Source: Alphaproteobacteria bacterium (lineage in GTDB: Bacteria > Pseudomonadota > Alphaproteobacteria > Rs-D84). From it: 64,000 nucleotides of DNA. Where the stretch lies: contig JAFTPS010000013.1 of NCBI GenBank assembly GCA_017463185.1, forward strand, positions 3,826 through 67,825, read 5' to 3'. The position numbers and the translations under genes are program-made. This document shows positions 55,675 through 58,710 of the stretch, piece after piece. The notes beneath the pieces were generated by a model, which was not told the DNA's origin, did not search any database, and worked only from the letters and a program-made list of their open reading frames with translations. The stretch's first letter is position 1; each line of letters opens with the position of its first letter.

Positions 55675-58600
55675 ATGAAAGCAGATGCACATAAACAGGT
55701 TCAATATCTACGCAATGGGTTGGAACAATTCCTGGCCGATGAAGACAAACATATCGCCAATGGCGCACCGCGCCTGCGTGGCGAACAGTACTTTGCGCTG
55801 GGTGCATTGACCAAGCTGTCTGACACCCAAATTGCGGCCAGTTATTACAAACTGCCCACTGGGTTTGGTAAAACCGTAATGTTTTCATACATGGCCCAGG
55901 CGTATCTGCCCCAGGCACGCGCCAATGGTGACACAAAGAAACTGGTTATATTGGTGCCACGTTTAAATTTGATTAACCAAACCAGCGACAAACTGGACAG
56001 CTTTGCCGGATTTAGTGCATCGGAATTTAGTGGCCGCACCAAGGACACCGATGCAGACATCGTTATTTCAACATACCGTTCATTGGATAAACTGGTAGAA
56101 ACCATTGGGATTGAAAATATCGGCCTAATCTTTGCGGACGAGGCCCACCATGCCACCGGCGACAAGATATCCCAAAACATGATCGATTTAATAAAATCTG
56201 TGCCAACAATTGGATTTACCGCCACCCCATCATACGATACCGATAAATCAGTTGGCAATGTTATGGGAACAGAAATATTTGCAATGACAATCGCCGATGG
56301 CGTACGCAGCGGAATGTTATCGCCGGTCAAAAACACCCTGTATTGTTCCAGCATTGTATACGACCTGGAAAACGCACCTGCAACTAACACCGGCGAATAT
56401 GACTATAACAGTATAACCGGTCAAATTGACACAGACACATTGACCAGTGAAATTGCAGACATATACATCAATGGCGTTGACGAAGACACCGGCCGCCGAT
56501 TTATTGATTGCAAGGCAATGATAAACTGTCCCAACATTGAAATGGCAAAACGCCAGGCCGATGCAATTAACCAACGAGCCGGCCGCATCATCGCACGCGC
56601 ATTTTCATCAGACATGAAAGATTTCGAGATTGAAAAAGCAAAATTCATTGCCGGCGAATACCAGGTTGCATGTCAGGTTAACACCATGACCGAGGGCTTT
56701 GACGACCCCACGGTCAGCCTGTGCATAAACTATCCAACACGTTCCGCCGTTCGTGCCGAACAAGCTGCCGGGCGTGCAATTCGTCTGAATGAATCTGATC
56801 CGCATAAAATCGCATTTGTAATCGATACAATTTTCAGAAAGCACGACAGTGAAACCAGCGACACTGCACTTCAAACCGCACGACACGCAAAACAAGTTTT
56901 GTTCAAGGACATCGCCGGCGGAATGGTATTATTCCCAGAAAATTTCAAGGATGTCATCACACATGGCAAACACCGTCCACACACCCGTGGCAACCACGAA
57001 ACCGTAAAACCATATGAAATCATCACATCAACGGAAACACTGCTGGACCTAAATCGTGTCGATACAGAACGCGCCAAGGAAGAAGAAATACCAGAAAAAA
57101 CCGATGAATGGCTGACTGCTACAGAACTTATGAAATATATTTTGGGTGGCAAGAATAAAATTTTACAAAAACTAATCGCTTTGACCAAAGAGATGCCAGG
57201 CAAGATTGAAACAAGACAATCTGGCAGCAACACCCCTCTGTGTCTGCATATCAGTGCAATTGAAGAATTTAGTCAACTGTCAGGCTTAAAAAGGGTTGGC
57301 AGTATACAGCCAAAGTCGAAAGACTGGTTGACCGCAGACGAACTTCGAAAATATTTCGTAGGTCAATCAGAAAAAATATTAGCAAAACTGCGAGAACTAG
57401 CAGAAAAAATGCCAGACAAAATTCAACAAAGAAAATCCGGAGGTGCAACTCCACTATGTCTACATATTAGCGGAATTGAAGAATTTAGACTTTTATCAGG
57501 CCTTGAAAGAAGAACGGAAATCCAACCAAAGACCAAAGACTGGTTAAACTCAAAAGAGGCAAGCCAATATTTTAAAGCACAACAAATGACCGTTTTGCAA
57601 AAAATGAATGAATTAGCTGAAAAGATGCCAGACAAGATTCAGAAAAGACAATCTGGTTCTCTGACACCACTATGTGTACACATCGGTGCAATCGATGACC
57701 TGGCAAAATATTCGGAATTAGAAAGAAAAGGGAAATTCCCAGCCAAAACAAACGATTGGCTGACAGCAAACGAATTACACATGCACATCAGAGCAAAAGC
57801 CGATAAAATTCTAGAAAAACTCAAAGAATTTGCAAATATGATGCCTGACAAAATCCAACAAAGAGAAATCTCCAACGGCCAGTCTCCTTTATGTCTACAC
57901 ATTAGTGGGTTAGATAAGTTTATACAGCTTTCCGGATTGGAAAAAAGAACCACTATTTCTAAAAAGACAACCGAATGGTTAACTGCTGATGAATTGACCA
58001 ACCATTTTATTGGTGGCGCAGGTAAGATTTTAGGAAAACTACGAGAACTGGCCGCTAAAATGACAAATGAAATTCAAATTATGCAGTCCGGCTCTCGGCG
58101 AGTTCTTTGTCTGCATATTAGTGCTCTGGACAAATTTGCTCAATTATCAAAACTAGAAAGACAAATAAAACTACAAGCAAAGACCAATGACTGGTTAAAT
58201 GCAACAGAGCTAGCCAAATACTTTATAGGTGGCAGAGATAAAATATTAAAAAAACTTGATGAACTAAAAACAATGATGCCAGACAAAATACAAAAAAAAC
58301 AAAACGGATCCCACACGCCCCTATGCCTGCATATCGATGCGCTGGATGAATTTGCACGGCTGTCGGAATTAGAAAAGAGAGTTCCGCAGAAAACAAGCGA
58401 ATGGCTGACTGCAAAAGAATTGACACAATATTTTGTATGCACGCAACCGGCAATAGCAGAAAAACTAGTCGCACTAGCTAAAAAAATGCCAGGTAAAATA
58501 GAAAAAGTACAATCTGGTTCTAAGACCACTCTATGTCTGCACCGAGATGCATTAGATGAATTTGCGCAACTGTCGGGCTTAAAAAGACGTACCGAAGTCA

Positions 58601-58710
58601 CACCAGAAAAGTTCCATGCCGGAACTAAAGTTGTCAAGGCAATGACCCAGATGGCAGAATCCAAGAAACAAACAAAGGATACCATCACCCCCGACAACCA
58701 ATACGAATAA
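55675..58710 (+). CDS. SF2 (DEAH, ResIII-type) helicase fused to seven tandem repeats of about 72 aa
   Basis: LPTGFGKT (motif I), DEAHH (II), GFTATP (III), QAAGRAIR (VI). The C-terminal half is seven copies of K..(D/E)WL(T/N)A.EL..YF.G...IL.KL.ELA.KMPDKIQ.RQSGS.TPLCLHI.A(L/I)(D/E)EF..LS.LE(R/K). Confidence 0.85.
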   Translation: MKADAHKQVQYLRNGLEQFLADEDKHIANGAPRLRGEQYFALGALTKLSDTQIAASYYKLPTGFGKTVMFSYMAQAYLPQARANGDTKKLVILVPRLNLINQTSDKLDSFAGFSASEFSGRTKDTDADIVISTYRSLDKLVETIGIENIGLIFADEAHHATGDKISQNMIDLIKSVPTIGFTATPSYDTDKSVGNVMGTEIFAMTIADGVRSGMLSPVKNTLYCSSIVYDLENAPATNTGEYDYNSITGQIDTDTLTSEIADIYINGVDEDTGRRFIDCKAMINCPNIEMAKRQADAINQRAGRIIARAFSSDMKDFEIEKAKFIAGEYQVACQVNTMTEGFDDPTVSLCINYPTRSAVRAEQAAGRAIRLNESDPHKIAFVIDTIFRKHDSETSDTALQTARHAKQVLFKDIAGGMVLFPENFKDVITHGKHRPHTRGNHETVKPYEIITSTETLLDLNRVDTERAKEEEIPEKTDEWLTATELMKYILGGKNKILQKLIALTKEMPGKIETRQSGSNTPLCLHISAIEEFSQLSGLKRVGSIQPKSKDWLTADELRKYFVGQSEKILAKLRELAEKMPDKIQQRKSGGATPLCLHISGIEEFRLLSGLERRTEIQPKTKDWLNSKEASQYFKAQQMTVLQKMNELAEKMPDKIQKRQSGSLTPLCVHIGAIDDLAKYSELERKGKFPAKTNDWLTANELHMHIRAKADKILEKLKEFANMMPDKIQQREISNGQSPLCLHISGLDKFIQLSGLEKRTTISKKTTEWLTADELTNHFIGGAGKILGKLRELAAKMTNEIQIMQSGSRRVLCLHISALDKFAQLSKLERQIKLQAKTNDWLNATELAKYFIGGRDKILKKLDELKTMMPDKIQKKQNGSHTPLCLHIDALDEFARLSELEKRVPQKTSEWLTAKELTQYFVCTQPAIAEKLVALAKKMPGKIEKVQSGSKTTLCLHRDALDEFAQLSGLKRRTEVTPEKFHAGTKVVKAMTQMAESKKQTKDTITPDNQYE
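57094..58605 (+). repeat. Seven in-frame tandem repeats (periods 216, 216, 216, 219, 216, 210 nt)
   Basis: The conserved Trp codon sits at 57109, 57325, 57541, 57757, 57976, 58192 and 58402. Confidence 0.95.

Follow-up and report, generated by a model that had tools for sequence, protein, structure and literature searches.

A predicted winged-helix repeat array fused to an SF2-type ATPase motor in uncultured gut Alphaproteobacteria

The gene considered here lies in a 64,000-nt stretch of DNA from an alphaproteobacterial genome assembly (GCA_017463185.1, contig JAFTPS010000013.1, forward strand, positions 3,826-67,825), referred to below as the window and supplying the coordinates used throughout. 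Its product joins a superfamily 2 (SF2) DEAH ATPase to a string of seven similar repeats that follow in frame; a first-pass annotation had described the open reading frame (ORF) at 55675-58710 in these terms, and that observation is confirmed in all particulars. The parts of the gene and its immediate borders are as follows.

55576..55642, no strand: divergent promoter-like region between the HExxH gene (minus strand) and the helicase gene (plus strand), from a consensus scan
55675..58710, plus strand: whole coding sequence, 1011 aa, ATG start; motor, linker, seven repeats and tail
55675..57084, plus strand: SF2 ATPase motor region, aa 1-470; N-terminal helices, then two RecA-like lobes, then a helical/linker segment
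55855..55875, plus strand: motif I/Walker A, PTGFGKT, aa 61-67; T62, G65 and K66 invariant in 91 sequences
56137..56148, plus strand: motif II, DEAH, aa 155-158; D155, E156 and H158 invariant in 91 sequences
56761..56784, plus strand: motif VI, QAAGRAIR, aa 363-370; Q363, G366, R367 and R370 invariant in 91 sequences
56950..57003, plus strand: low-confidence, probably flexible linker, aa 426-443; predicted local distance difference test (pLDDT) < 50 in the full-length model
57085..57300, plus strand: repeat 1, aa 471-542; nucleotide homology to the relatives L003, L004 and L006 stops here
57301..57516, plus strand: repeat 2, aa 543-614; the copy that was modelled singly
57517..57732, plus strand: repeat 3, aa 615-686; from the repeat hidden Markov model (HMM) and full-length model
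57733..57951, plus strand: repeat 4, aa 687-759 (73 aa); from the repeat HMM and full-length model
57952..58167, plus strand: repeat 5, aa 760-831; from the repeat HMM and full-length model
58168..58377, plus strand: repeat 6, aa 832-901; from the repeat HMM and full-length model
58378..58593, plus strand: repeat 7, aa 902-973; clear counterparts in most close relatives
58594..58707, plus strand: conserved C-terminal tail, aa 974-1011 (38 aa), KFHAGTKVVKAMTQMAESKKQTKDTITPDNQYE
58711..58734, no strand: terminator-like hairpin, 10-bp stem with 6 G-C pairs, directly after the stop codon and common to the convergent downstream genes

The repeats are anchored by a conserved tryptophan at aa 479, 551, 623, 695, 768, 840, and 910, a spacing of 72, 72, 72, 73, 72, and 70 aa; in nucleotides the intervals are 216, 216, 216, 219, 216, and 210, as the reported range of 210-219 nt had it. 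The repeat HMM recognizes seven domains, each with an E-value of about 1e-36 to 1e-39, and finds no further significant repeat in a six-frame translation of the window. Individual repeats are 70-73 aa long and share 39-59% protein identity and 60-73% DNA identity with one another. Because the copies are so diverged in DNA, collapse or expansion during assembly is unlikely; Tandem Repeats Finder detects no DNA-level array across the region, other assemblies are concordant, and an assembly artefact is rejected as very unlikely. A separate 4.4-kb contig from roe-deer caecum (L002), possibly from the same strain as the window source, is 100% identical in nucleotides over gene nt 1-2415, to the contig end, and two further metagenome-assembled genomes (L008 at 98% and L001 at 96%) carry the same array without the seventh repeat.

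The motor region matches Pfam ResIII/DEAD at aa 34-188 (79.2 bits, cutoff 22.5) and Helicase_C at aa 280-371 (25.2 bits, cutoff 23.5). In an alignment of the window protein with 90 homologs, the residues of motifs I, II, and VI listed above are invariant, as is T184 of motif III (TAT); motif VI has the form QxxGRxxR. The set of motifs I, II, III, and VI first read from the sequence is thus complete. Two RecA-like lobes together with motifs I, II (DExH), III, and VI place the protein among the SF2 helicases and translocases. The ratio of nonsynonymous to synonymous substitution rates (dN/dS) is 0.07-0.14 across the motor; residues and rates alike show the SF2 ATPase to be intact and purifying selection to act on it. 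Its fold is nearest to double-stranded DNA (dsDNA) translocases, which is the activity predicted for it. Sequence relatives with solved structures are XPB/Rad25, Hef, and one Type I R subunit; the prokaryotic SWI2_SNF2 family PF18766 passes its cutoff (43.1 bits; cutoff 26.7), and the eukaryote-type SNF2 family PF00176 stays below threshold (16.4 bits; cutoff 24.9).

Among annotated proteins, those closest in sequence are 'DNA helicases' of phages and plasmids (phrog_16), at 22-32% identity over the motor only, one of which belongs to a PolB/VRR-NUC replication module. None of the motor relatives in phage, plasmid, and IMG/VR collections carries a repeat array; a Vibrio phage match that reaches into repeat 1 is an alignment overrun, and the repeat HMM is negative there. 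Identity as HsdR was considered and rejected: the protein scores 40.5 bits for TIGR00348 (cutoff 284.55) and 38.1 for the EcoAI equivalog (cutoff 550), its N-terminus (aa 1-55) is helical without a nuclease match, and no hsdM or hsdS lies nearby, the adjoining genes encoding GNATs, a kinase-like protein, an HExxH protein, and glycosyltransferases.

The motor is acidic (isoelectric point, pI, 5.42) and the array basic (pI 9.45). An alignment of 94 diverse repeats drawn from homologs was used for modeling and for Pfam comparison; with it, AlphaFold2 predicts for repeat 2 (mean pLDDT 88.3) a short strand followed by two helices, after which come a beta-hairpin and a third helix. All seven repeats share this fold when the whole protein is modeled (pLDDT 84.2, predicted template modeling score [pTM] 0.53), and the low-confidence parts of that model are aa 426-443 and the final 38 residues. 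The best structural matches of the repeat are all DNA-bound winged helix-turn-helix (wHTH) domains of the Xis/MerR/ParA-N type, and the predicted model has the elements of the excisionase/MerR-type winged helix, namely strand, helix-turn-helix, beta-hairpin wing, and C-terminal helix. At the level of sequence profiles the relationship disappears: 0 of 94 repeats match Pfam HTH_17, MerR, or MerR_1 at E <= 1, and a PDB-sequence profile search with the repeat returns nothing below E 0.1. The excisionase/MerR-type opening noticed in the first pass therefore survives as a resemblance of fold, in the AlphaFold2 model and its structural matches, and falls as a claim of sequence-profile membership. 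With high confidence, the repeats as modeled resemble the excisionase/MerR/BldC-type winged helix at fold level rather than by family membership.

No known domain for the repeat is found in Pfam, NCBIfam, PADLOC, or the PDB sequence profiles. The PHROGs entry phrog_1969 gives just a summed sub-threshold match in which no single stretch passes, and it is not relied upon. A catalytic or metal-binding role for the conserved Cys-x-His of the repeat is unlikely, as proteins that consist of the array alone substitute both residues.

A search of 5.8 billion proteins yields a set of 192 homologs, whose lengths are quantised in steps of ~72 aa. Repeat number, which the first-pass annotation had proposed comparing between strains, does vary, and extensively: the repeat HMM counts from 1 to 8 or 9 copies. 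In about 45 relatives the motor (aa 1-470) is 88-96% identical to that of the window protein and the 38-aa tail 81-100% identical, with 1-8 repeats between them, and in these same proteins the best match of the internal repeats is merely 45-65% identical. Repeat 7 is the sole repeat with recognizable counterparts (66-80% identity) in most close relatives, and this repeat is missing from the otherwise near-identical alleles L001, L008, and P0001. Once repeats are clustered into types, the strings CEJKBD, CECBBD, CEBBD, JKBD, and AEJKBDL indicate shuffling, duplication, and loss; other lineages are homogenised or evolve in concert, as the strings MMM, AA, and PFHFFQ indicate.

The boundary between conserved and variable parts is sharp in DNA. 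In blastn comparisons, identity of 95.5% (L003, L004) or 88.8% (L006) breaks off at gene nt 1441, where repeat 1 encodes KTDEW, and restarts no earlier than repeat 7, at about gene nt 2607-2644. Nei-Gojobori rates were obtained for the window gene against L003 and L004. The motor has a synonymous rate (dS) of 0.15 and a nonsynonymous rate (dN) of 0.018-0.019; the tail has a dS of 0.045 and the neighboring genes a dS of 0.1-0.6, dN not being used for either; the array has a dS of about 1.8-2.0 (saturated), a dN of 0.30-0.38, and a dN/dS of ~0.2. The array ratio is near 0.2, and therefore the array sequences appear old and constrained rather than the product of a recent amino-acid burst. Against L001 the order is reversed, with an array dS of 0.06 that is smaller than the motor dS of 0.185; here the array is younger than the motor, which indicates mosaicism. 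The picture drawn from these sequences is of divergent array alleles that would move between, or persist across, closely related genomes, in the manner of a cassette. Such an allele pattern is known for specificity determinants, for example the target-recognition domains of HsdS. By analogy, old divergent alleles lying between recently diverged flanks would mark the array as a determinant of specificity on which diversifying or balancing selection acts.

Within the repeat, substitutions are concentrated. Over 2030 repeat pairs that are 70-97% identical, the substitution frequency is ~0.4-0.65 at profile positions 13, 16, 20-25, 27-28, and 31-32, which form the loop preceding helix 2 and one face of helix 2, and positions 48-51 at the tip of the hairpin, or wing, are likewise often substituted (~0.5); there are ~12 hot-spot positions per 72-aa repeat. 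Substitutions in helix 3 are rare (mean ~0.15), and the core residues K5, T6, W9, L15, I26, L30, I41, C53, and F62 show none. Helix 2 and the wing are the DNA-contacting elements of Xis/MerR-type domains. In BldC, too, helix 2 and the wing contact DNA (PMC5859096). The location of the hot spots supports diversification of the predicted DNA-contact surface, and fold, charge, and variation pattern together lend support to the idea that the array may read nucleic acid.

The repeat has its own distribution. Searched against 1.84 billion cluster representatives, the repeat profile matches 162 proteins, most of which are the same SF2 fusion or fragments of it. Some are array-only proteins encoded beside a different helicase: P0125 (767 aa, 10 repeats) begins behind a tRNA gene, with a promoter-like spacer and then a ribosome-binding site in between, and downstream of it come another array gene, with 3 repeats, and a Pif1/AAA_30 helicase gene; P0128 (774 aa, 10 repeats) has the orthologous Pif1 gene directly after it. 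The Pif1 proteins of the two loci are 94.8% identical vs 36% for the arrays, so that the array is hypervariable and helicase-linked in the array-only setting too, in one lineage only. In a distant lineage two tandem paralogs of the helicase-array fusion occur in housekeeping surroundings. The two kinds of locus are as follows.

L010 211-4593 (plus 3-repeat gene) and L011 758-4390: array-only genes with a Pif1/AAA_30 SF1 helicase gene directly downstream
L093 9001-15575: two tandem helicase-array paralogs, 833 and 637 aa, immediately upstream of NAD-dependent ligA

An apparent 'single-repeat' small protein, P0203, is a fragment created by a 100-N scaffold gap within a full helicase gene, and other short repeat matches start inside a repeat. 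On present sequence comparisons the repeat is an uncatalogued, lineage-restricted domain family for which Pfam has no model; its units, from 1 to 10 in number, are joined covalently in arrays. The first-pass remark that no helicase of this architecture had been described also stands: no described helicase or translocase with an exchangeable tandem winged-helix array is found in Pfam, PDB sequences, PHROGs, PADLOC, the phage, plasmid, and IMG/VR collections, or the literature searched. Both building blocks, the SF2 motor and the excisionase/MerR-type winged helix, are known; the arrangement is not a familiar one.

The close relatives that carry the gene are all uncultured gut Alphaproteobacteria, Candidatus Enterousia among them. 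Enterousia is placed in the order Rs-D84; most of its genomes are smaller than 1 Mb, the TCA cycle and a respiratory chain are missing, and the group is predicted to be an obligate symbiont or parasite of other cells (PMC12306168). The host of the window gene is referred to the same group, as an uncultured alphaproteobacterium with a reduced genome. The gene content of the window, a ribosomal-protein/EF-Tu/SecY block, a bile-salt-hydrolase-family gene, and then small accessory genes, fits this picture. The bile-salt-hydrolase-family gene (46646-47725, minus strand; choloylglycine hydrolase family, Pfam CBAH, E 2e-64) stands beside tRNA-Gln and is consistent with a gut habitat.

The helicase gene had been placed in a defense or effector island next to tRNA-Gln with a divergently transcribed HExxH gene, and the context does not support that reading. 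The tRNA-Gln gene is 7.7 kb away from the helicase gene; PADLOC-DB 2.0 identifies no system and no neighbor matches, and for the helicase protein itself returns just weak motor-core matches (REase_I at E 2e-9, PbeA, and HamB); no conserved nuclease or methylase partner lies nearby. The divergent HExxH gene is present as described and is retained in the closest relatives only. It belongs to three co-oriented genes upstream of the helicase gene (53319-55569, minus strand), in which a 257-aa protein and the 270-aa HExxH protein, neither with a Pfam, NCBIfam, PADLOC, or PHROG match, flank a GNAT (Acetyltransf_3); L013, L014, and L019, too, have Acetyltransf_3 GNAT genes no more than a few kb from the helicase gene. 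Neighbors in other lineages include a MerR regulator, an ABC-F protein, GNAT acetyltransferases, a prophage- or gene transfer agent-like terminase, and DNA methylases.

The helicase gene and the divergent HExxH gene are separated by 105 bp that contain, at 55576-55608, a near-perfect palindrome, ATTATTGACAA-N11-TTGTCAATAAT, which by its sequence may be an operator. In the promoter-like region at 55576..55642, TTGACA-17-AATAAT occurs on both strands inside the palindrome, and there is also an ATGAAA-16-TATAAT that has a TG. Conservation of the 90 bp preceding the ATG is 92-94% in L003 and L004 despite differing arrays; autoregulation through array-specific promoter sites was considered and rejected, there being no co-variation of promoter DNA with the array.

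A related peptide closes all complete members of the family, array-only proteins included. In the family-wide alignment it reads GTKVVxAM...K..K.PD(D/N)Q(H/Y)x, right up to the C-terminus; the GTKVVxAM stretch is amphipathic, and in the full-length model the tail is predicted as a helix with pLDDT < 50. Because the tail is conserved next to a hypervariable array, it may serve in docking (as a partner-docking peptide) or in capping.

Taken together, these observations are best accommodated by a DNA motor that works in the cytoplasm, is driven by ATP, and owes its choice of target to a modular array of DNA-binding domains that can be exchanged, a molecular model that is given slightly better than an even chance. 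The domains would sit head-to-tail along duplex DNA, as free Xis, RdfS, and BldC protomers do on direct repeats. BldC forms head-to-tail multimers on 9-bp direct repeats (PMC5859096); at ~9 bp per protomer, seven modules would therefore cover roughly 60-70 bp. Each module would read a short segment through its exposed helix-2 face and wing tip, the array would anchor or load the motor onto particular DNA, and the HsdR/Snf2-like motor, which has no nuclease domain, would then translocate on dsDNA, reeling it in or displacing bound proteins. Fast-changing targets, for instance mobile elements or foreign DNA, may be what is recognized, and not one fixed site on the chromosome; cassette-like evolution would imply that the recognized DNA changes quickly, and this favors conflict with mobile or foreign DNA. 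A role in chromosome maintenance is kept in play by the housekeeping contexts and by retention across an order of minimal genomes, and confidence in any specific biological role, whether conflict and defense or chromosome maintenance, is lower than in the molecular model. The most far-reaching version, in which the repeats are a new class of modular sequence-specific DNA readers, each recognizing a short DNA word and retargeted by cassette exchange to meet changing foreign DNA, is offered tentatively and is on balance unlikely.

Several points weigh against the model of an array-targeted motor. The array dS is in part inflated, as non-orthologous repeats are being aligned, although the lack of any close counterpart repeat agrees with a high value. 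In several lineages the gene stands in core or housekeeping contexts (ligA, a gyrA/parC-type topoisomerase, RecR, tRNA synthetases), and no conserved nuclease, methylase, or other partner is found across the related loci; the housekeeping context fits a maintenance role better than classical defense. A full-model pTM of 0.53 leaves inter-domain geometry unfixed. Winged helices attached to a helicase need not bind DNA and can have their role in oligomerization, of which the C-terminal domain of Lhr is an example (PMC8053096). Finally, MerR/BldC-type domains make few base-specific contacts (PMC5859096), and the array may thus bind DNA non-specifically.

The last of these points leads to an alternative in which the array is a non-specific tether on duplex DNA, providing processivity, anchoring, or a measure of length, and drifts by unequal recombination under weak constraint. 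Such a tether is not probable, but it carries real weight: few base contacts are what MerR/BldC/Xis-type domains make, the array is uniformly basic, copy numbers of 1 to 8 are tolerated, and some lineages show the concerted evolution seen in MMM, AA, and PFHFFQ. It accounts poorly for the pattern of substitution, in that weak constraint cannot yield a saturated array dS between flanks with a dS of 0.05-0.15, a repeat dN/dS of ~0.2 is itself constraint, and substitutions fall on the canonical reading surface and not on all exposed positions, helix 3 being conserved.

The Lhr precedent gives rise to a second alternative, a protein-protein or oligomerization scaffold that assembles helicase oligomers or recruits variable partners in the way of the five-winged-helix (WH) Lhr C-terminal domain (PMC8053096). 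The resemblance of the conserved C-terminal tail to a docking peptide would suit it, yet an array pI of 9.45, structural matches that are without exception DNA-bound wHTH domains of the Xis/MerR/ParA-N type, and a variable copy number ill-suited to a defined oligomer interface make this improbable. Slightly more doubtful again is an exported effector whose array would target partner or host-cell DNA, in a TALE-like or nucleomodulin-like way, with the C-terminal tail as export signal. The predicted life of Rs-D84 bacteria as obligate symbionts or parasites of other cells (PMC12306168) gives this proposal a setting, and hypervariable repeats ahead of a conserved extreme C-terminus resemble effector logic; against it, neither the window nor any related locus shows a secretion system, the protein has no N-terminal signal, the gene adjoins ligA and other housekeeping genes in some lineages, and a 1011-aa ATPase would be unusual cargo. 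A helicase that binds the origin or acts as initiator for a mobile element, integrated or former, UL9-like (herpesvirus) by analogy and with array and iterons co-varying, is very improbable, given phage and plasmid relatives that are just 22-32% identical and have no array, the lack of a linked integrase, Rep, or other element gene, retention of the gene across a bacterial order with genomes under 1 Mb, promoter-proximal DNA that does not co-vary with the array, and the lack of iteron-like tandem DNA repeats in the window.

Some further features of the window stand apart from these questions. Convergent with the helicase gene is an 83-aa ORF (58752-59003, minus strand), which is 83% conserved in amino acids in L003 and contains GGGSISIFEKLRELADKTPTKF, like the helix-2 region of the repeat. 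As an eighth repeat it is not significant (hmmsearch E 0.04, hhalign probability 6.8%); about 50 nt at ~58940-58988 match the array of L001/L002/L008 in inverted orientation at 82%, a match that is not statistically secure. From its sequence the ORF could be the relic of an inverted repeat copy. GC skew is ~+0.2 from 1 to ~47 kb and negative from ~48-52 kb onward, plus-strand genes included, which suggests that the tRNA-Gln/accessory-gene stretch (47000-53000), a few kb before the start of the helicase gene, contains the replication terminus; a loose pattern search for a dif-like site at the switch gave nothing convincing. A 90-aa ORF at 51747-52019 (plus strand) evolves fast, with 52% protein identity to L003 (dN 0.28) vs ~94% for adjacent genes. 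At 36167-46622 there are large ORFs that match no Pfam family (632, 296, 1297, and 597 aa), adjoining a 1098-aa CarboxypepD_reg/OmpA protein; these may be lineage-specific surface proteins.

The family is thus one of covalent arrays of predicted winged helices, which either continue a conserved translocase or have a gene of their own next to that of a Pif1 helicase, and which evolve, as far as the alleles indicate, like cassettes open to exchange. Should the array read DNA sequence, it would represent a new natural way of targeting a DNA motor, a possible new scaffold for designed DNA recognition, and a view on how obligate-partner bacteria with genomes of <1 Mb handle foreign or variable DNA; if the repeats are indeed modular readers, the protein would be a single-polypeptide bacterial analogue of the specificity subunit of Type I restriction-modification (R-M) or of a TALE array. 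The host is uncultured, yet recombinant protein makes the model directly testable.

Among known systems, Type I R-M (HsdR plus HsdS) differs in that the window protein lacks a PD-(D/E)xK nuclease domain and its locus lacks HsdM and HsdS genes; the putative specificity module forms one polypeptide with the motor and consists of predicted winged-helix repeats instead of target-recognition domains. FtsK offers another parallel, being a DNA translocase directed by a C-terminal winged-helix gamma domain that reads the FtsK-orienting polar sequences (KOPS). FtsK is, however, a hexameric pump of the RecA family whose gamma domain is single and conserved, with neither an array nor hypervariability, whereas the window motor is SF2. 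RadD (E. coli YejH) and XPB/Rad25, the COG1061-type SF2 DNA repair ATPases, are <20% identical to the window protein and neither has a repeat array; the zinc-finger or C-terminal domain of RadD is not recognizable in the window protein, and aa 1-470 contain no CxxC pairs, both judged by reading the sequence by eye. Lhr likewise follows an SF2 helicase with several consecutive WH modules, five in its C-terminal domain (PMC8053096).

BldC, Xis, and RdfS are single-domain proteins that assemble non-covalently, and the window family differs from them in having 1-10 covalently linked, mutually different domains, in arrays fused to or encoded beside a helicase, and in showing no detectable sequence-profile relationship. 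Transcription activator-like (TAL) effectors are alike in their tandem similar modules, variable copy number, concentration of the variation at certain positions, and recombinational rearrangement. The window array does not fit a TALE-like programmable array with near-identical repeats and one repeat per base: TAL effector repeats are near-identical with two variable positions, those of the window array are 39-59% identical with ~12 variable positions per 72 aa, the folds are unrelated, and each module of this putative reader probably covers several bp.

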